From Oscillospiraceae bacterium (GTDB taxonomy: Bacteria > Bacillota > Clostridia > Oscillospirales > Ruminococcaceae), in contig JBJFHQ010000370.1 in the NCBI GenBank assembly GCA_051893755.1, positions 1 to 30,212 of the forward strand: a DNA stretch of 30,212 nucleotides, given 5' to 3'. The position numbers were made by a program, and so were the translations under genes. Numbering within the stretch: the first letter of the stretch is position 1; the number at the start of each line of letters is the position of its first letter. Below are positions 19,150 to 29,781 of this stretch, one piece after another. The notes under the pieces are model-generated. The model did no database searches. It was not told the origin of the DNA and saw only the letters and a list, made by a program, of their open reading frames with translations.

Positions 19150-20152
19150 TTATCTCATCATCTCCGCCCTTGCTGATAACAAGCTCGCCCTCTTCCTCGA
19201 GGTGTCTGATTATGCCGACTATGCGCTGCTGAGCCTCTTCAACATCACGCATACGAATATTGTGCATATATTCGATCTCCTGCTGGATAGACTCCTGCAT
19301 ACGCTGAGGCATGTTCGCGTAAAGTGCCGCTGCCACCGTGGAATTGGAGCCCTTGATAGCGATAGCAAGATCCTTGGTCTCGCACTCTCTGATAAAGCGC
19401 TGTATCGCCATAGAATCCAGACCCACGATATCCTCGAATACGAACATCTTCTTTTTGATCTCGTCCACCAGCACAGGATCTCTGGAAGTGAGCTCGTCGA
19501 AGATAAACTTCTCGTTGGCTCTGTCCACCTTGTTGAGGACATCCGCCACGAAGTTTATGCCGCCGACCTCGGTGGTATCCATAGTAACTGCCGCAGAGAA
19601 CTTTCTCTCCAGCATGGACTCGATAGACCTGATAGTCTCGGGAGAGGTGGAATCCATTTTTGCCATTCTCTCGACAACATCGACGCGTTTTTCCTTAGGC
19701 AGCTCGGAGAGCACCTGTGATGCCTGCTCCGCCGTTGCATAGGAAAGGATAAGTGCGATAGTCTGGGGATACTCGTTCTGAACGATAGCCAGCAGATTCT
19801 TCGCATCGGATTTTCTGACGAACTCGAAGGACTTTGTTTTCATTCTGTTGGATATCTTTGCCATAAGACGTTCCGCGGTCTCCTTGCCGAAGGCCTTTTC
19901 GAGAACATCTCTTGCATAGTCCACGCCGCCGTCGGTCATGACCTTCTCGGTGAGACAGAGCTCGTAGAACTCATTTAGAATGGAGTCTACGGTATTGCTG
20001 TCGAAGAACGGCAGACTGGAGACCTCAAAGGTAAGCTTCTCGACCTCCTCGTCGCTGAGATGCTTGTACACATCAGCGGCATTATCCGTTCCGATAGCGG
20101 TTATGATAATAGCCGCCCGCTGCATGGAGGTCATTTCATTTATATCGCTCAT
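19142..20152 (-). CDS. fliG: Flagellar rotor protein FliG
   Basis: 336 aa; QRAAIIITAIG, EYPQTIALILS, GGINFVADVLN, MFVFEDI, IRMRDVEEAQQRI. Confidence 0.98.
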   Translation of the reverse strand: MSDINEMTSMQRAAIIITAIGTDNAADVYKHLSDEEVEKLTFEVSSLPFFDSNTVDSILNEFYELCLTEKVMTDGGVDYARDVLEKAFGKETAERLMAKISNRMKTKSFEFVRKSDAKNLLAIVQNEYPQTIALILSYATAEQASQVLSELPKEKRVDVVERMAKMDSTSPETIRSIESMLERKFSAAVTMDTTEVGGINFVADVLNKVDRANEKFIFDELTSRDPVLVDEIKKKMFVFEDIVGLDSMAIQRFIRECETKDLAIAIKGSNSTVAAALYANMPQRMQESIQQEIEYMHNIRMRDVEEAQQRIVGIIRHLEEEGELVISKGGDDEIIA

Positions 20153-21849
20153 TGTTGTACGGCACCTCCGTTTCCGTTATCGGCGCTGTTTGCCTGTGCA
20201 GCTATAGCCTCGTTTTCCTTTTTCCTGTCCTCGGGAGTTTCGTTCATCCAGTTTCTGATAAGCTGAGCCACGATCTCAGGCCGCTGACGGGCAAATGTAG
20301 CAATTTCTCTTCTGACCGCAAGCTCCTTGGAGTTTTCGTTGTCGCCCACCAGACTGGGTATGTCGATATTTTCTCCCGAAGCGCTGTTGATAGAGTAGAA
20401 GTTTTCCACAAGAGGCTCCTGTTCTGCGCCCACGTTGGCTGCAAGGAGCTGCTGCTCGAATTTTTCTCTCTTTTTCCTGGACTTGCCCGAAACTGCCACC
20501 AGAATGATAACAAGAATGATAAGCATTCCCAGCAGTATCGCGCCCAGTATGATAAGCTGATTTCTTGTAAGACCGAACAGATAGGTCTGCTCGTCCACAG
20601 CCTCGACGGTATCGCCGAACTTGGGAAGACTTGTAACAGTCACAACATCGTTTACCAGCTCGGGATTGATAGACGCCGCATTTCCTATAAGGGAAACAAG
20701 CTCCTGCTTGGTGGTATCGGGGAGATAGTCCGTGTAGATTATAGTCGAAACGGAGAGGCTGTCTATTGTGTAGCCTTCCTTTTCGATCTGTTCCTTATAT
20801 GTATTTACAAGGTAGATATTGTCCAGTGAGGATTCCGACCAGCTTCCATTCCCGTTGGTATCGCCGGTAGGATAGGTGTCGTCCGCATTGACCTCCACGC
20901 CGACTATACCGCCGTCCGCGGTAGCATAGCCTGTAGCATTTTCCGACTTGCCCTCCTGCAGCATACCTCTTCCGTCATCGGTGGAGGGAGTATATACCGT
21001 ATCCTCGGAGACCTTATCGTCGAAGTTGAGGACCGCATTCACCGCAACAGCGAAACCGTCGTCGTTATATGCGGGAGTAAGCAGTTCGATTATCTTGTCC
21101 TTTATCTGATTTTCAAGGCTTGCCTTGAAGCGGAGCTTTCTTGTTTCCAGAGCCACCACATCGCCGCCGTCCGCCTCTGCAACGAGGAGCACGCCGTTCT
21201 GGTCGATGATAGAGACGTTTTCCTCCTTCATATTTTCGCAGCCCTTGGTGATAAGGCGGGTGATACCGTTTATCTGCGCATTTGAAAGAGTCGCATCATT
21301 TTTGAGATAGACCGCCACCGAAGCCGACGGGTCGGAGCGGTTATCGGCGATAACGGTATTTCTCTTTTCGGGGATATACAGAGTGACCTCCGCCTTTTCC
21401 ACCGATGAAAGCGAGCCGATTATCGCAGAAAATCTGTCCTCAAGAGCGATCCTCTTGTACTCCTTGGTTTCCGACTCGGTAGAGAACATGCTCAGATGCT
21501 CGGTAAGAAATTCATAATTTCCGCTGCTCTTGGGATAGCCCTGCTGAGCGAGGGTCATAGCAAGAGTATTTTCCGTACCCTCGGGAACGGTGATAGTACC
21601 TCCCGAAAGGGTGCATTCATAGCCGGATTCCTCGATTATGGCAACGATCTCCGAAGCCTCGGAGGTATCCAGCCCCGTAAAGAGCACCACGTCGTCCTTG
21701 TGATTTGCCACAGCTATAACGATCGCAAGGATGACCAGAACAGCGACAAAAGAGGATATATATATTATTTTATTTTTCTTTTCCTGTTTTGCCCAGAACT
21801 TTTTCAGCGAATCAACAGCCTTGTTCGCTTGTTCCTTTGCATTAGCCAT
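20149..21849 (-). CDS. fliF: MS-ring protein FliF
   Basis: 566 aa; two TM helices, LFTGLDTSEASEI, PSASVAVYL, PEIVAQLIRNWM C-terminus; 4-nt overlap with fliG. Confidence 0.96.
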   Translation of the reverse strand: MANAKEQANKAVDSLKKFWAKQEKKNKIIYISSFVAVLVILAIVIAVANHKDDVVLFTGLDTSEASEIVAIIEESGYECTLSGGTITVPEGTENTLAMTLAQQGYPKSSGNYEFLTEHLSMFSTESETKEYKRIALEDRFSAIIGSLSSVEKAEVTLYIPEKRNTVIADNRSDPSASVAVYLKNDATLSNAQINGITRLITKGCENMKEENVSIIDQNGVLLVAEADGGDVVALETRKLRFKASLENQIKDKIIELLTPAYNDDGFAVAVNAVLNFDDKVSEDTVYTPSTDDGRGMLQEGKSENATGYATADGGIVGVEVNADDTYPTGDTNGNGSWSESSLDNIYLVNTYKEQIEKEGYTIDSLSVSTIIYTDYLPDTTKQELVSLIGNAASINPELVNDVVTVTSLPKFGDTVEAVDEQTYLFGLTRNQLIILGAILLGMLIILVIILVAVSGKSRKKREKFEQQLLAANVGAEQEPLVENFYSINSASGENIDIPSLVGDNENSKELAVRREIATFARQRPEIVAQLIRNWMNETPEDRKKENEAIAAQANSADNGNGGAVQQ

Positions 21850-22244: not shown

Positions 22245-22730
22245 TCATCTGCCTGTCAGAGACTGAGCCTTGTCCAGCATAGCCTTGACAGCCTCGATAG
22301 CGGTAGCATTTGCCTCATAGGAGCGCTGAGCCGCCAGAAGATCTATCTGTTCCTTGGTATTATCAACATTAGTCTGATAAATATAGCCGTTTTCATCCGC
22401 AAGGGGATTATCGGGGTCATACACGGGAGTAAAGGGAGTCTCATCGTCAACGACTTCGGCGACCTGAACGCCCGCATAGGTGTAGTTATTGCGGTTTTTC
22501 CTGTAATAAACGCCGTGTCTGTGAGTGGACTCGCGTTCCTGAGTATAGCGGTTCATCACATCGGAGAAGGTCATTTTTGTCTGAAAGGACACAAGCTGAC
22601 GGCAGTAAGGGTCTCCGTCGGCGGTATTATAGGAGTCCTGATTTGCGATATTCTGTGAGATAACGTCCATTCGCAGTCTTTCGGCAGAAAGCGCCGAAAA
22701 TCCGATGTCAAGAGAATTCAAAAAAGACAT
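22245..22730 (-). CDS. flgC: Basal-body rod protein FlgC
   Basis: 161 aa; SALSAERLRMDVISQNIAN, YDPDNPLADENGYI, AQRSYEAN. Confidence 0.97.
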   Translation of the reverse strand: MSFLNSLDIGFSALSAERLRMDVISQNIANQDSYNTADGDPYCRQLVSFQTKMTFSDVMNRYTQERESTHRHGVYYRKNRNNYTYAGVQVAEVVDDETPFTPVYDPDNPLADENGYIYQTNVDNTKEQIDLLAAQRSYEANATAIEAVKAMLDKAQSLTGR

Positions 22731-22746
22731 AATGAAGCTCCTTTAA

Positions 22747-23109
22747 TCATTTGCCGATAGCAGTTCTTATCATCTGATACTGACTGTTAAGGTAGTCGAT
22801 CATGGTACTGTACTGATACTGTGCGTCGAGCATGGCGTTAGATTCTTTTTCAATGTCAACATTATTTCCGTTAAGGATCTGGTTTGTGTTAGTCTCATAG
22901 GTCTCGGCAAGTCTGACCTTAAGTCTGTCGCCGCCTGTGATCTTAGCATGGATCGCGTTATCCAGCACAAGTCCGAAGGAAACAGTCTTAGCCTTATAAT
23001 CGGGAGTTTCCACATTAGCGATATTGTTGCTGATAACCTTCTGCTGATACCATGACGCGTCGAGACCCTGTTCGGTGATCTTAAAAGCCGCGCTGTCAAA
23101 CATTGACAT
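22747..23109 (-). CDS. flgB: Basal-body rod protein FlgB
   Basis: 120 aa; QKVISNNIANVETPDYKAK, NGNNVDIEKE; first gene of the flagellar operon; SD GAAAGGAAGG. Confidence 0.96.
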   Translation of the reverse strand: MSMFDSAAFKITEQGLDASWYQQKVISNNIANVETPDYKAKTVSFGLVLDNAIHAKITGGDRLKVRLAETYETNTNQILNGNNVDIEKESNAMLDAQYQYSTMIDYLNSQYQMIRTAIGK

Positions 23110-23447: not shown

Positions 23448-24581
23448 TCATATTTTATCCCCGACAAGCTTTTCGACCTGTTCCCATATCCTGTCGGGGG
23501 TGTCCTTGATGTAGAGCTCTGCGGCTCTCTGCGCAAGAACGTCGGTCTTGCCGGGGTCATTGTAAAACTCCGAGACCTTTTCTATTATCTTGTCGTAATC
23601 GAGGTCCTTCTGCTCGATAACAATTGCCGCTCCCGCTTTTCCGAGGACCATCGCATTATGATACTGATGATTTCCCGCCACAACAGGGGACGGTATCAGT
23701 ATAGACGCTCTGCCCTCCGCTTCAAGCTCGGTTATGGCAGAGGCTCCGCTGCGGCAGATGATAAGGTCCGCAGCTGCCATGCACACGTCCATGTTGCGGA
23801 TATAGTCCTTTATCATAAGGCGGGGGCTGCTGATATCCACTCCGCGGGTCTCAAGATTTTTTATGAATGTATCCTTTCCCATGCGGCCGTAGCTGTGGAT
23901 ATGATTTATCTTAAGTCCATTTTTCTGCTCGTATTCGATAAGCCGCTCCGCCGTATCGTTGATAGCTCCCGCTCCCAGACTTCCGCCGTAGCTCAAAATG
24001 ACCATTCCGTCATCAAAGCCCAGCTCCTTTCTTGCAGCTTCGCGGCTCATTTTGCCTGTAAAGCCCTTTCTCACAGGAAGTCCCGTCACCGTGTGAGGGA
24101 TATCCTTGTCAAGATACTCCATTGCCTCCTCCACGGTAAGCATGACCATATCCACCTTTTTGGACAGTATCTTCGTCGTCACTCCGGGATATGCATTCTG
24201 CTCGTGGATAAGGGTAGGTATCTTCATTCTTGCCGCCTCAAACACGACAGGACCGCTCACATATCCGCCCGTACCGATAACAAGGTCAGGCTTGAAGTCG
24301 TTTATGATATGCTTTGCCCTCGGTCCCGACGAAGCAAGATATGCCGCCGCGCGGATATTCCTTCCGACATTTTTCAGCGTCAGCTTTCTCTGAAAGCCGC
24401 TTACCTTAATGGGAGTGAACCTGATACCCGCATCGGGGACGAGATTTGCCTCCATTCCCTTGGGAGTCCCCGCATACAGAAACTCGGCATCTGGCACATG
24501 GTCCTTAATTATCGAGGATATGGCAAGAGCAGGGTTGATATGTCCCGCAGTGCCTCCTCCCGCAAGCAAAACCTTAAGCAT
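23448..24581 (-). CDS. murG: Lipid II synthase MurG
   Basis: GGGTAGH, HEQNAYPG, GGSLGA, RSGASAITE motifs; start moved to ATG 24581, which follows GAAAGGAA. Confidence 0.97.
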   Translation of the reverse strand: MLKVLLAGGGTAGHINPALAISSIIKDHVPDAEFLYAGTPKGMEANLVPDAGIRFTPIKVSGFQRKLTLKNVGRNIRAAAYLASSGPRAKHIINDFKPDLVIGTGGYVSGPVVFEAARMKIPTLIHEQNAYPGVTTKILSKKVDMVMLTVEEAMEYLDKDIPHTVTGLPVRKGFTGKMSREAARKELGFDDGMVILSYGGSLGAGAINDTAERLIEYEQKNGLKINHIHSYGRMGKDTFIKNLETRGVDISSPRLMIKDYIRNMDVCMAAADLIICRSGASAITELEAEGRASILIPSPVVAGNHQYHNAMVLGKAGAAIVIEQKDLDYDKIIEKVSEFYNDPGKTDVLAQRAAELYIKDTPDRIWEQVEKLVGDKI

Positions 24582-24605
24582 GGCAATTTTTCCTTTCAAC
24601 AATTA

Positions 24606-25910
24606 TTATCGGGTGCTGACCTCTGCGTCCGAGGGAGCCTGTCTGTGCGCACTTCGGCGCTTTTTTCTGACCTCGCCCGATTCCGAGATAGTGTGTCTGG
24701 AAATATTCAGCAGTATCCCCATTTCGCACAGCTGCATGATAAGCGCCGTGCCGCCGTAGCTGAAAAAGGGCAGGGATATTCCCGTATTCGGTATGGCATT
24801 GCATACAACGGCAATGTTCAGAAACGCCTGTAGTCCTATCTGGATAGTTATTCCGCAGGCTATCAGCATGCCCGACTTATCCACCGCCTTGACCGCAATT
24901 GAAAAGCCTCTGAAAACAAACAGCACAAACAGGATTATCACCATGATAGCGCCGATATATCCCAGTTCCTCGCAGATAATGGCGAAAACGAAGTCATTCT
25001 TTGACTCGGGCAGATATAAAAACTTCTGTCTCGAATTGCCCAGTCCCAGTCCGAAAAGTCCGCCCGAGCCTATGGCAATAAGGGAGTTTCTCGTCTGATA
25101 GGTGTCGTCGGAATACTCCGAGTCAAAGGGGTCGGTAAAGCTGTGGATACGCTTTTCGATATAGCCCAGATCGCCCGATATGGACTTATACGCCATATAT
25201 ACCACGATAAGCACTACCGCGCATATTCCCGCAGCAATAAGATATTTCATGTCAACTCCGCCAATAAGCATGAGCGAGAAGCATATCACGCACATAATTA
25301 TTATCGCAGAGAAGTGTGGCTGCTGTGACAAAACAAGAGCATAAACTCCGAGGGCAAATACAAATGGTACGATGCCCACGGTAAATTTCTTCATTCGGGT
25401 GTAGTTTATGGATATCCAGTAGGCAAACAGCAGCACAAGGGCTATTTTCGCTATCTCCGAGGGCTGGAACTCCGTGCCGATCTTTATCCATCGGTATGCG
25501 CCGTTATGAGGGGACCTTATTCCGGGCACAAAGCAGAGTATCATAAGTGCCAGCGCACCGAAATACGCTCCCGTCACCACCCACTGCTTCTGGAAAAAGT
25601 GGTAATCCAGAAAGGACAGCCCGAACATTCCCACAAGACCTATCCCTGCCATCATGCACTGACGCTTGAAATAATAGTCTCCTTCCTCGCCCTCAGCTAT
25701 CGCCCATGCATAGCCTGCGGAAAACATCATGATTATGCCGAACACCAGCATGACCAGTATAATGACCACCATAGGCGCATCAACGCCCACCTGTCTGTCG
25801 TTCCTGGGACGGGACACTCCCGCCGTGAAAAACAGCTTGAATGTGGATTCCTTTTTAGGCTGTGCCTTTTTCTTCTGCGGATTATTTTCTTTTCTTACAT
25901 TTTCCGCCAA
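24606..25910 (-). CDS. ftsW: SEDS peptidoglycan polymerase FtsW/SpoVE
   Basis: 434 aa, about 10 TM helices; GAYRWI, FQPSEIAK, LPESKNDFVF (catalytic Asp present), PNTGISLPFFSYGG; TTG start after AAGGAGG. Confidence 0.93.
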   Translation of the reverse strand: MAENVRKENNPQKKKAQPKKESTFKLFFTAGVSRPRNDRQVGVDAPMVVIILVMLVFGIIMMFSAGYAWAIAEGEEGDYYFKRQCMMAGIGLVGMFGLSFLDYHFFQKQWVVTGAYFGALALMILCFVPGIRSPHNGAYRWIKIGTEFQPSEIAKIALVLLFAYWISINYTRMKKFTVGIVPFVFALGVYALVLSQQPHFSAIIIMCVICFSLMLIGGVDMKYLIAAGICAVVLIVVYMAYKSISGDLGYIEKRIHSFTDPFDSEYSDDTYQTRNSLIAIGSGGLFGLGLGNSRQKFLYLPESKNDFVFAIICEELGYIGAIMVIILFVLFVFRGFSIAVKAVDKSGMLIACGITIQIGLQAFLNIAVVCNAIPNTGISLPFFSYGGTALIMQLCEMGILLNISRHTISESGEVRKKRRSAHRQAPSDAEVSTR

Positions 25911-25928: not shown

Positions 25929-26888
25929 TCATTTTACAGATATGTTAAGCAAAACCAACGCAGCAGCTGCGCAGATAAGCGAAAATATGAAATATCTGAG
26001 TATCACCGCCGCAGTGTTTTTTGCTCCGTATGACGTATTCCTGTTCCTGCGAAGTCCCAACAGACCGCATATCCCGTCGAAAAGCACAGGTATCAGCATT
26101 ATCAGCATATATACCGCTTTTCCCGAGGATACCGTCATAACTGCCGCTCCGAACCCCATCAGCATCGAGCCGCATCGTCCTCCGAGGATCTTCACCGAGG
26201 GATAATTCCACACCAGAAAGCCCATAGCACTGCCTGCCGAGGCTGCCGACAATATGCCAAATTCGCTCATGGACAGTCCCGCGAATACCGACATAGCGCC
26301 TATGGAAAACACCGCATATACCGATGCTGCCGCTCCCGCCTGCCTATCCGTTTCGGAAAAGCAGCCGCATATGACAGTCATCACTGCCGTCATTATCGGA
26401 TAATACGCCGCTCCAAGCTCGAGCTTTCCCGCAAAGGGGATATCTGTCGACGTATCTGTATCGCCTTTTATAAAGAGTATGATAAGAAACGCCGCCGATA
26501 ATATCAGCTGACCGAGGATAATATATTTTTCGGGTATACCACCTTTTTTTCCTCTGCTCCGGAGCAGGTCGCTGTAAAATCCAACTGCCGCCGCCGCGAG
26601 CATCATCAGCTGTCCGATAAAGTAAGGAAAGGCATTTTCCGAATGTGGTCCGAGGCTGTCCGAGAAAAATCTCATGGTGAGAAAGCCAGCCGCCGAGGAA
26701 ATGAATATCCCTGCGCAGAGCATCGCTCCGCCGCTTATGGGGAGCTTTTCTCCCGAGCTGTCCCTTTCCGCTCCGTCGGTGATGAAGCGCAGCTTTTTCA
26801 GCAGGGGAAGCAGATAGTTCCCTATGAGAAAGGTCACGCACAGCCCGATAAGCGCAGTCAGAACATTTATCCAGAGACCCTTATACAT
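25929..26888 (-). CDS. MraY-like (glycosyltransferase family 4) membrane protein with degenerate catalytic motifs
   Basis: 319 aa, multiple TM helices, mraY slot after murF; vestigial motifs LPISGG, VGFYSD, SETDRQAG, GFLVWNYPSVKILGGRCGS; own SD GGAG and 8-nt overlap with murF stop. Confidence 0.8.
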   Translation of the reverse strand: MYKGLWINVLTALIGLCVTFLIGNYLLPLLKKLRFITDGAERDSSGEKLPISGGAMLCAGIFISSAAGFLTMRFFSDSLGPHSENAFPYFIGQLMMLAAAAVGFYSDLLRSRGKKGGIPEKYIILGQLILSAAFLIILFIKGDTDTSTDIPFAGKLELGAAYYPIMTAVMTVICGCFSETDRQAGAAASVYAVFSIGAMSVFAGLSMSEFGILSAASAGSAMGFLVWNYPSVKILGGRCGSMLMGFGAAVMTVSSGKAVYMLIMLIPVLFDGICGLLGLRRNRNTSYGAKNTAAVILRYFIFSLICAAAALVLLNISVK

Positions 26889-29781
26889 TTTCTCCGTAAA
26901 GCTCCGTGATGACCGTTTCCAGCTTCATCGCCCTGCTGCCCTTGAACAGTATGACATCGCCCTCGTGAGTGTTCATCTTGAGGAAATCGGACAAAGCCGC
27001 CGTGCTGTCGGTATGCGCCGACTGAATACCTGACGCCTTTGCGCTTTCTGCGGCATATTTTGCAAATTTTCCGTAGCATACAAGCAGGTCTATCTGCTTT
27101 TCCGCCGCATATTTTCCAATCTCACGGTGGAGCCTCTCGGACATATCTCCGAGCTCCAGCATATCTCCGAATACGCAGATACGCTTTCCGTTCTCATCGG
27201 GCTTCTTAACGGAGCAGAGAACGTCTATCGCCGCTTTCATTGAAACGGGCGCTGCGTTGTAGCAGTCAACTATGATCTTCTGACCGTTTTTTTCTATAAT
27301 GTGCTGTCTGAGACCTGTCGGAGCATAGCTCTTCAGAGCATTTGCCGCATCAATGATCGAACACCCCGCCAGCTGAGCAGCTACTGCCGCAAGGAGAGCG
27401 TCGATTATATAATGCTTACCTGTGACGGGCAGCTCACAATGAGCGCAGATAAGTCCGCTGTGAGCAATATCGAATTCAACTCTGTTCTCGTCGGAAATTA
27501 TATTGACCGCCCGATAATCGGCATTGTGATTATCAATGCCGCAGGTTATCACCTTGTGACCGTTAACGCCGTTTCTGAGCGCATAAAGATAATGATCGTC
27601 ACCGTTTACTATAAGAGGAGCATCACTCTTTGCTCCGTCAAGTATCTCAAGCTTAGCCTTTAAAATACCCTGCTTTGAGCCCAGGTTTTCGATATGAGAG
27701 TAGCCGATATTGGTGATAACGCAGATATCGGGCTTTGCTGCCTTTGACAGCACGCTTATCTCGCCCGAGTGGGACATTCCCATTTCAATAACTGCCGCCT
27801 GTATTCCGGAATTGAGCCTGAACAGGGTAAAGGGCAGTCCTATATCATTATTGCGGTTGCCCTCGGTCTTCATGGTAACAAACTCCGAGGAGAGCGCACA
27901 GCTTAAAAATTCCTTTGAGGTAGTCTTTCCCACGCTGCCTGTCACTCCCACCACAACAGGGGAGAATTTCCGTCTGAAATGTCCTGCCAGCTCAAGGAGT
28001 GCCTTTCTGGTATCGGAAACCACGATGCAGGGCGTATTTTTGACGATGCGGCTGGTCACAGCGCATACCGCACCCAGCTCGTTGACCGCCTTTTCGGCGA
28101 AGGTGTTGCCGTCGAAGCTTTCGCCCTTGATGCCGAAAAACAGTGCGCCTTTTTTGATAGTCCGCGTATCGGAGCTTATCTCACCCGCGAAGACCACAGT
28201 ATTCGGTGAATAATTCATTCCGAAGGGCTTTCCGTTCACAGTCCTGCAGATCTCGTCGAGAGTGAGAGACTCCTTCTTCTGCGGAGCGCCCTTTGCAGCA
28301 GTGCCGAACGCTTTTTTCAGACATTCTGCCACAACTTCACGCTCGTCGAAATGGATATGCTTTCCGTCCGCCAGTATCTGATAATCCTCATGACCCTTAC
28401 CCGCAAGAACGAGGACATCGTTCTTTTTTGCTATTTTAATGCCGTGGAGGATAGCCTCCTTACGGTCTGCTATCCTGTCGTAGGATGTATTTTCGGAAAA
28501 GCCTGCAATTATATCGTCGATGATAGCCTCGGGGTCCTCGTTTCTTGGATTATCCGAGGTAACTATGATATGGTCCGCATATTTTTCCACAGCCTTTGCC
28601 ATAAGGGGACGCTTTGTCCTGTCGCGGTCCCCGCCGCAGCCGAACAGGCAGATAAGTCTGCCCTTGGTATTTTCCCTGACTCCGGGGAGCATTTTCTCCA
28701 ATGCGTCGGGGGAGTGAGCATAATCGCACACCACTGTAAAATCACGTCCCGTGGGGATTATCTCGCATCTTCCGCGGACTCCGCCGAATTTAGCCATTGC
28801 CGCCGCAGTATCCTTGACGGGCATGCCCAGCTTCAGGCAGACAGCAATTGCCGCCGCCGCATTGAGGACGTTGAATCCGCCCACCATATTCAGCGTTACG
28901 GGACATGCCGTGGTATTTTCCCCGCCCTGAACATATATCCAGAATTTCATGCCGTTTCCGCCGGGAGCAACGTTGTCCGCATACACGGAATAGCCCTTTC
29001 CGATACCGTAGGAATACTTCTCGCAGGAAATTTCGGAGAAAAGTCTGTCTCCGTAGGGGTCAGTTCTGTTGATAATGGCAATATCGCAGCTTTCGGTGAA
29101 AAGCCTTTTCTTTGCCTTATAGTAGTTTTCCATGGTCTTATGATAATCGAGATGATCCTGAGTAAGATTCGTAAACACGCCGATCTTAAATCTTGCAGGA
29201 CCTATCCTGTTCTGTTCCAGTGCAAAGGATGTGACCTCCATTACCACATAATCGCAGCCCGCCTTTGCCATGCGGTCGAATATCCCGAAAAGCTCAAAAA
29301 CTCTGGGAGTAGTGGGAGTAGAGTCGTCCCTGTCGATCATCTTCCCGCAGATAAAAGCCCCCGTAGTGCCGATAAGCCCCACCTTTTTATGACGATATTC
29401 AAGCATAGCGGTTATCATGGAGGTCATAGTAGTTTTTCCGTTAGTGCCCGTAACGCCGATAAGGGTCATTTTCTTTTCGGGGTGACCGAACCACGCAGCG
29501 CAGAGAGACCCGTAAAAACGTCTTGAATCGGAAACGATTATCTGTTTGTCACCGAGACCCACATCATGCTCTGCAACAACGCACACTGCGCCCATGGCGA
29601 TCATTTCCGCCGCAGCGTTATGACCGTCGAAATTTTCTCCCTTTACGCACACGAAGATCATATCGGGATCAAGCTTTCTCGTATCATCGGTGATACCTGT
29701 GATATCCGCCGACATATCGAGCCCCTTAGCGGAGTAAGGCATATATTTTCCCGCGTCATTTAAAAGCTGTTCTAATTTCAT
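26881..29781 (-). CDS. murEF: Bifunctional MurE-MurF fusion ligase
   Basis: 966 aa with two Mur ligase units: aa 1-490 MurE (GVTGTNGKTT, TQDHLDYH, DYAH, DNPR, GKGHE) and aa 506-966 MurF (GVTGSVGKTT, EMGMSH, DCYNAA, GDMLELG, KGSR); continuous frame. Confidence 0.96.
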   Translation of the reverse strand: MKLEQLLNDAGKYMPYSAKGLDMSADITGITDDTRKLDPDMIFVCVKGENFDGHNAAAEMIAMGAVCVVAEHDVGLGDKQIIVSDSRRFYGSLCAAWFGHPEKKMTLIGVTGTNGKTTMTSMITAMLEYRHKKVGLIGTTGAFICGKMIDRDDSTPTTPRVFELFGIFDRMAKAGCDYVVMEVTSFALEQNRIGPARFKIGVFTNLTQDHLDYHKTMENYYKAKKRLFTESCDIAIINRTDPYGDRLFSEISCEKYSYGIGKGYSVYADNVAPGGNGMKFWIYVQGGENTTACPVTLNMVGGFNVLNAAAAIAVCLKLGMPVKDTAAAMAKFGGVRGRCEIIPTGRDFTVVCDYAHSPDALEKMLPGVRENTKGRLICLFGCGGDRDRTKRPLMAKAVEKYADHIIVTSDNPRNEDPEAIIDDIIAGFSENTSYDRIADRKEAILHGIKIAKKNDVLVLAGKGHEDYQILADGKHIHFDEREVVAECLKKAFGTAAKGAPQKKESLTLDEICRTVNGKPFGMNYSPNTVVFAGEISSDTRTIKKGALFFGIKGESFDGNTFAEKAVNELGAVCAVTSRIVKNTPCIVVSDTRKALLELAGHFRRKFSPVVVGVTGSVGKTTSKEFLSCALSSEFVTMKTEGNRNNDIGLPFTLFRLNSGIQAAVIEMGMSHSGEISVLSKAAKPDICVITNIGYSHIENLGSKQGILKAKLEILDGAKSDAPLIVNGDDHYLYALRNGVNGHKVITCGIDNHNADYRAVNIISDENRVEFDIAHSGLICAHCELPVTGKHYIIDALLAAVAAQLAGCSIIDAANALKSYAPTGLRQHIIEKNGQKIIVDCYNAAPVSMKAAIDVLCSVKKPDENGKRICVFGDMLELGDMSERLHREIGKYAAEKQIDLLVCYGKFAKYAAESAKASGIQSAHTDSTAALSDFLKMNTHEGDVILFKGSRAMKLETVITELYGENV

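Follow-up and report, generated by a model that had tools for sequence, protein, structure and literature searches.

A catalytically degenerate MraY retained under purifying selection in the dcw cluster of a genus of pig-gut Oscillospiraceae

A whole genus of pig-gut Oscillospiraceae carries, in the canonical mraY slot of the dcw cluster, a full-length MraY homologue which has lost catalytic residues and is nevertheless preserved as an open reading frame. This protein (P0001, hereafter the dead copy) is a pseudoenzyme derived from MraY. We consider it probable that the native dcw mraY died catalytically after a second, divergent MraY-type gene, here called par2, took over lipid I synthesis, and that the dead copy was kept as an accessory membrane protein. 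MraY is regarded as universally essential and serves as a major target of antibiotics, and its gene ranks among the most highly conserved in the dcw cluster.

The DNA analysed (the window) is a stretch of 30,212 nucleotides, contig JBJFHQ010000370.1 of assembly GCA_051893755.1, and belongs to a metagenome-assembled genome (G000) of 431 contigs and 2.59 Mb with a completeness of 84.5%. The dead mraY occupies positions 25929..26888 of the minus strand and encodes, from an ATG start, a protein of 319 amino acids with ten predicted transmembrane (TM) helices. It is preceded by a gene coding for a MurE-MurF fusion of 966 amino acids (MurEF; 26881..29781, minus strand) and followed by genes coding for the SEDS protein FtsW/SpoVE (24606..25910, minus strand) and, beyond ftsW, for MurG (23448..24602, minus strand). 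The start of the dead mraY overlaps the stop of murEF by 8 nt (ATGTATAA) and has a GGAG sequence 3 nt upstream, and a gap of 18 nt separates its end from ftsW/spoVE, which has a strong AAGGAGG Shine-Dalgarno sequence of its own. The intact 319-amino acid frame with its own Shine-Dalgarno sequence, described in an earlier note made from the DNA letters, was borne out, on a strand (minus) which that note had left unstated. The 8-nt coupling to murF reported there exists as an overlap, its partner being the 966-amino acid fusion rather than a plain murF. Among the sequencing runs on record, the stretch was found in pig-gut DNA metagenomes only, in small shares, and no RNA run holding it was found.

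The damage to the protein was located by comparison with the motifs of canonical MraY. Loop A survives as LPISGG in place of TPTMGG (residues 49-54; 26727..26744, minus strand), and GFxDD, the motif with the DD pair that follows TM3, has become GFYSD, the first Asp being now a Ser (residues 103-107; 26568..26582, minus strand). Remnants of loop C, GCFSETDRQAGA instead of NxVNLTDGxDGL (residues 175-186; 26331..26366, minus strand), and of loop D, WNYPSVKILGGRCGS instead of FNxxPAKVFMGDxGS (residues 227-241; 26166..26210, minus strand), are followed by a shortened loop E (residues 277-291; 26016..26060, minus strand), from which the PIHHHFE histidine loop has been deleted and which contains no His. 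Loop C, NxxNxTDGxDGL, forms the uridine/sugar site of MraY, and the Asp of MGD binds Mg. In the dead copy this Mg-binding Asp of MGDxGS is replaced by Arg238, the motif reading GGRCGS. All of these motif readings had been given correctly in the earlier note. Its broader statement that essentially every catalytic motif is destroyed holds for the first Asp of the DD pair, loop C, the MGD Asp and the His loop, but not for the second Asp of the pair, D107, which all the dead copies examined retain; throughout the genus it is the first Asp that has been substituted.

The pattern of conservation along the protein is uneven. Canonical MraY has 69 columns with a conservation of at least 90%, and the dead copy keeps 20 of them, mostly Gly and Pro positions together with D107, K114 and K233. 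Conservation has fallen most in loops A, C and E on the cytoplasmic side; it is close to the canonical level in TM1, at the end of TM2, in the TM6-TM7 region and in TM9a. The former catalytic segments (ex-motif segments) are unrelated between distant species of the genus.

Membership of the dead copy in the PNPT family is, judging from profile scores, real but weak. The family check proposed in the earlier note gave 43.1 bits on Pfam PF00953 (Glycos_transf_4), above the cut-off of 27, and 40.1 bits on TIGR00445 (MraY equivalog, EC 2.7.8.13), far below the cut-off of 192. A search of the P0001 sequence against PDB chains returned no match at E up to 1. An AF2 model built from a 32-row alignment had a pLDDT of 88.6 and a pTM of 0.90, with ten long helices and a periplasmic hairpin, and was of low confidence at residues 284-286 in loop E; because the alignment included canonical MraYs, the conclusion that the fold is retained leans partly on them. 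In a Foldseek search with this model, the significant matches were MraY (TM 0.74-0.81) and eukaryotic DPAGT1 only, with E down to 9e-11. Canonical MraY (TIGR00445; 4J72, 5JNQ, 8G01) and the dead copy are alike in ancestry, in the murF-ftsW slot and in the predicted 10-TM fold, and share the GG of loop A, the second Asp of the DD pair and many Gly and Pro positions. They differ in that the dead copy scores 40 bits against a cut-off of 192 and has lost the first DD Asp, NxxNxxDGxDG, the Mg-binding Asp and the HHH loop.

The dead copy is not a peculiarity of one assembly. An intact ORF of 317-330 amino acids is present between murEF and ftsW in all eight genomes of the genus (G000-G007), with TIGR00445 scores of 27-40 bits, and none of these genomes reaches the cut-off. 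Outside the genus, 33 relatives were sampled from other genera of the family and from 16 further families. Canonical MraY (212-309 bits) was found in 29 of them, in the corresponding position in every case where the dead-copy query gave a match too; the four below the TIGR00445 cut-off comprise three incomplete genomes without a match and one genome, G035, at 69 bits. In a maximum-likelihood tree the copies of the genus fall among the canonical MraYs of the family to which the genus belongs, at the end of a very long branch, and are therefore orthologues rather than intruders. The phylogeny thus indicates that the window ORF is the native dcw mraY of the lineage, inherited vertically. As all eight species are without the motifs, motif loss predates the radiation of the genus.

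The window genome contains only one other gene of the PNPT family, par2, which is incompletely assembled there and split over two contig ends. Its N-terminal part (108 amino acids; C411:5536-5859, locus L003) lies beside a lacI-like gene and its C-terminal part (163 amino acids; C114:2921-3397, locus L001) beside a pyruvate kinase gene, and an intact orthologue of 318 amino acids (P0012; L059:1813-2766) was found in the close relative G005 in the same lacI-gene-pyk arrangement. Mis-binning of the two contigs was considered and rejected on the strength of this lacI-par2-pyruvate kinase synteny and of an identity of 92-96% to G005, comparable to that of FtsW (93-94%) and MurG (96%). The par2 of the window genome retains the DD pair, NxTNCTDGVDGL, MGDAGS and a PLHDH loop, and P0012 retains GYLDD, NVTNCTDGVDGL, MGDAGS and the PLHDH loop; par2 with intact motifs is present in every genome of the genus. 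The best PDB matches of P0012 are the MraYs 5jnq and 4j72, over nearly its full length, and it scores 102 bits on TIGR00445 and 52 bits on WecA.

P0012 belongs to a large and well conserved clade with an invariant signature, LPKDQGR...KGKPRG, SINVTNCTDGVDGL, MGDAGSR and RTPLHDH. Members are named MraY in the sources, for example in Lachnoclostridium phytofermentans, and phospho-N-acetylmuramoyl-pentapeptide-transferase by NCBI/JGI; they reach only 64-113 bits on TIGR00445 (cut-off 192), and a branch of length 2.9 separates them from canonical MraY in the tree. The par2 clade resembles the dead copy in belonging to the PNPT superfamily, in its size of about 320 amino acids and in its presence in the same genomes, and is unlike it in having kept all catalytic motifs, in lying outside the dcw cluster and in being strongly constrained. 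The search for an intact paralogue, also proposed in the earlier note, thus led to a second MraY-type gene, not to a canonical paralogue but to a distinct and patchily distributed MraY clade. Weaker second TIGR00445 matches (60-94 bits), seen in other families of the order, were considered and rejected as par2, since the par2 query misses them at E up to 1e-20; they are other PNPT types.

The relation between par2 and canonical MraY was then surveyed in a class sample of 300 genomes of Clostridia, 280 of which have a canonical MraY above the TIGR00445 cut-off. Canonical MraY is absent in all 11 par2 carriers, against 9 of the 289 par2-negative genomes (Fisher's exact p = 5e-15, a value which overstates independence because the carriers come from only about five genera). 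Genus g71 and the genomes G465 and G467 likewise have par2 without canonical MraY, and in none of about seven genera does par2 share a genome with an intact canonical MraY. Four genomes with a completeness of 98-99% (G062, G301, G404 and G449) have par2 as their sole PF00953 gene and keep murE/F, murG and ftsW. As par2 is the sole PNPT gene of near-complete genomes, it would by elimination make lipid I, and gene content thus points to par2 as most likely the lipid I synthase of its carriers. That par2 occurs so patchily suggests that it has spread horizontally. In four other genomes of the class sample (G196, G309, G346 and G412) the best TIGR00445 match lay only at about E 1e-24 to 1e-32, and the par2 search found nothing at E up to 1e-40; these may be gaps in the assemblies or additional examples of a degenerate or displaced MraY.

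The dcw copy of par2 carriers outside the genus was found in two states. (i) In genus g71, which belongs to another family, it is half-dead: it scores 104-113 bits and keeps the DD pair and TDGSDGL, MGD has become SGK and the His loop is lost. A half-dead copy of 120-126 bits also occurs in the cultured Ruminococcus sp. Marseille-P6503 and in a related MAG. In Marseille-P6503 this MraY (locus L113, NZ_UWPB01000002.1, 2950-3972; 341 amino acids, 120 bits) has GES in place of MGD and HAH in place of HHH, and NCBI names it 'hypothetical protein'. (ii) In five par2 carriers the slot is deleted and murF abuts ftsW, namely in G062 (sister genus g36, 99% complete) and in four members of family f81. 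In the tree the g71 copy clusters with the canonical MraY of its own family, and its degeneration is for this reason independent of that in the window genus. Clean deletion in the sister genus and in another family implies that the gene is dispensable there.

Selection on the dead copy was estimated in four close species (G000, G003, G004 and G005). Its pooled dN/dS is 0.23 (bootstrap interval 0.18-0.29; range 0.21-0.29), against 0.08-0.14 for FtsW, 0.05-0.08 for MurG, 0.08-0.12 for MurEF and 0.05-0.09 for par2, and purifying selection is relaxed two- to four-fold relative to the neighbouring genes. By region, dN/dS is 0.21 in the TM helices, 0.23 in the cytoplasmic loops and 0.16 in the ex-motif segments; as the loops and the ex-motif segments are constrained too, selection is not limited to hydrophobicity, at least in the recent clade. 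Toward distant congeners the dead copy shows 30-37% identity and a dN of 0.68-0.84, against 54-79% and 0.17-0.34 for the neighbouring genes, and it evolves about three times faster than these.

In a neutral simulation, 5% of ORFs were still open at 0.1 substitutions per site, and from 0.25 upwards none of 2000 remained so. Among the close species dS amounts to about 0.5, and at greater distances it is saturated, yet all eight ORFs are open with no frameshifts. A dN/dS of 0.23 implies that the dead copy is not a decaying pseudogene and that selection maintains the ORF. The earlier note had held that a ratio near 1 with frameshifts would mean simple decay, and the value obtained, together with the eight open frames, favours a pseudoenzyme. 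Purifying selection acts here within a clade that already lacks the motifs, and the three marks of a pseudoenzyme, namely loss of catalytic residues, a retained fold and subsequent purifying selection, are all observed.

The main rival to the preferred reading sees in the dead copy a relic without a function of its own, in slow decay and heading for deletion. Its frame would stay open, and its product insertable and non-toxic, only because early stops or a misfolded membrane protein in the middle of an essential operon would harm the expression of ftsW and murG. The graded series of copies accords with such a course, being half-dead in g71 and Marseille-P6503 (104-126 bits), dead in the window genus (27-40 bits) and deleted in G062 and f81. 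The dead copy also has the fastest dN in the operon, its ex-motif sequences bear no relation to each other between species of the genus, and it overlaps murEF by 8 nt and lies close to ftsW. However, a ratio of 0.23 reflects selection on amino-acid identity beyond an open frame, and in the recent clade the cytoplasmic loops and the ex-motif segments are as constrained as the TM helices. Moreover, the dead state is older than the radiation of the genus, yet the ORF is full-length in all eight species, and clean in-frame deletion, evidently easy elsewhere, is absent in the window genus. With its soluble loops constrained and its ORF still present throughout the genus, the dead copy fits this reading less well, and slow decay seems to us an unlikely account.

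A different role for the protein would be that of a non-catalytic subunit which heterodimerises with par2 in place of the MraY homodimer and stabilises or regulates the active enzyme, in the manner of a prozyme. MraY is a dimer in its working form, with C55-P stabilising the interface (PMC9046198); in the dead copy, the conservation of TM1 and of several TM segments equals that found in canonical MraY; and catalytically dead paralogues are known to activate live ones, as with the trypanosome AdoMetDC prozyme (PMC5201418). Yet in at least five lineages par2 would be active with no dead partner at all, and the two proteins are distant (branch of 2.9) and not co-located, which makes this arrangement quite improbable. 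A complex prediction for P0001 with par2 gave a score of 0.00, which counts neither for nor against binding. The prozyme (PMC5201418) and pseudoenzymes generally (PMC5106787) resemble the dead copy in that the fold is kept, catalytic residues are lost and the protein is selected beside an active relative. Unlike dead duplicates of the prozyme type, the dead MraY would be the original orthologue displaced by an incoming type.

Another possibility, that the dead copy has rebuilt its active site and continues to synthesise lipid I or transfers some other phosphosugar, is hardly credible. The fold, D107, K114, K233 and the classic gene position between murF and ftsW are indeed retained, but the protein has lost one of the two Asp residues of the DD pair, the complete NxxNxxDGxDG loop, the Asp that binds Mg and the His loop. 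Each genome of the genus has an intact MraY-type gene, and the motif replacements vary between the species of the genus and therefore leave no alternative site under common constraint.

The preferred reading, displacement by par2 followed by retention in an accessory role, can be laid out as a succession of steps. The second MraY-type transferase would first have taken over lipid I synthesis, after which the dcw mraY would have been free to lose its catalytic residues. The dead copy would then have persisted as a 10-helix, MraY-shaped membrane protein, presumably co-transcribed and probably translationally coupled with murEF, ftsW and murG, and purifying selection would have retained it across the whole genus in what may now be a non-catalytic, accessory membrane role. 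The most plausible such role would be structural, in partnership with MurEF, MurG and FtsW of the lipid II machinery, or that of a subunit which binds polyprenyl phosphate. A structural or lipid-carrier-binding role is favoured because the TM scaffold, D107 and several Gly, Pro and Lys positions are kept while the UDP-sugar site is gone. As a subunit, the protein could, for instance, keep MurG and the MurE-MurF fusion close to FtsW, or bind undecaprenyl phosphate or lipid I.

We further propose, as a tentative generalisation which we hold to be somewhat less likely than its contrary, that a horizontally spreading MraY type has repeatedly displaced the dcw enzyme in Clostridia, and that in some lineages the displaced protein has become a selected, non-catalytic subunit of lipid II assembly. 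The earlier note had passed from loss of catalysis to a new non-catalytic role, naming as candidates a membrane scaffold, a lipid-carrier sensor, a heterodimeric regulator of a true MraY and a decoy for MraY inhibitors or phage lysis proteins. The pseudoenzyme part of this proposal stands; the new role is put in doubt by the clean deletion of the dcw copy in par2-bearing relatives, by its roughly threefold faster evolution and by ex-motif segments that differ between species.

A literature search on dead MraY, a second mraY, paralogues, the PNPT network and dcw gene loss in Clostridia found no description of such a case, within a limited coverage that does not prove absence. The mraY1 and mraY2 genes of Planctopirus are two non-essential copies and represent an unrelated case (PMC10632474).

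These observations bear on how the displacement of an essential gene proceeds, its stages (intact, half-dead, dead and deleted) being visible in related genomes. The position of par2 far below the curated cut-off affects how genomes are judged to be 'MraY-positive', and the par2 clade would widen the sequence space for MraY inhibitors and for MraY-blocking phage lysis proteins. If a structural role were true, the dead copy would be a natural separation-of-function allele for the non-catalytic roles of MraY; if the subunit reading were true, it would be the first pseudoenzyme from the membrane stage of peptidoglycan synthesis. The cultured isolate Ruminococcus sp. Marseille-P6503, with both genes, could serve as an experimental system.

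Finally, some features of gene layout accompany the dead mraY. A full-length MurE-MurF fusion is encoded in G000 and in four further genomes of the genus, those in which the region is fully assembled (loci L052, L054, L049 and L053). The murE and murF genes are separate in Marseille-P6503 and in the sister-genus genome G062, and murF is a separate gene in g71 (loci L087, L113 and L073). The distribution of the fusion is narrower than that of the dead MraY, for which the fusion is therefore not required. In the dcw segment of the window no murD lies between mraY and ftsW, and murG runs directly into flagellar genes coding for flgB/flgC-like rod proteins and fliF (22245-23109 and 20149-21849, minus strand).
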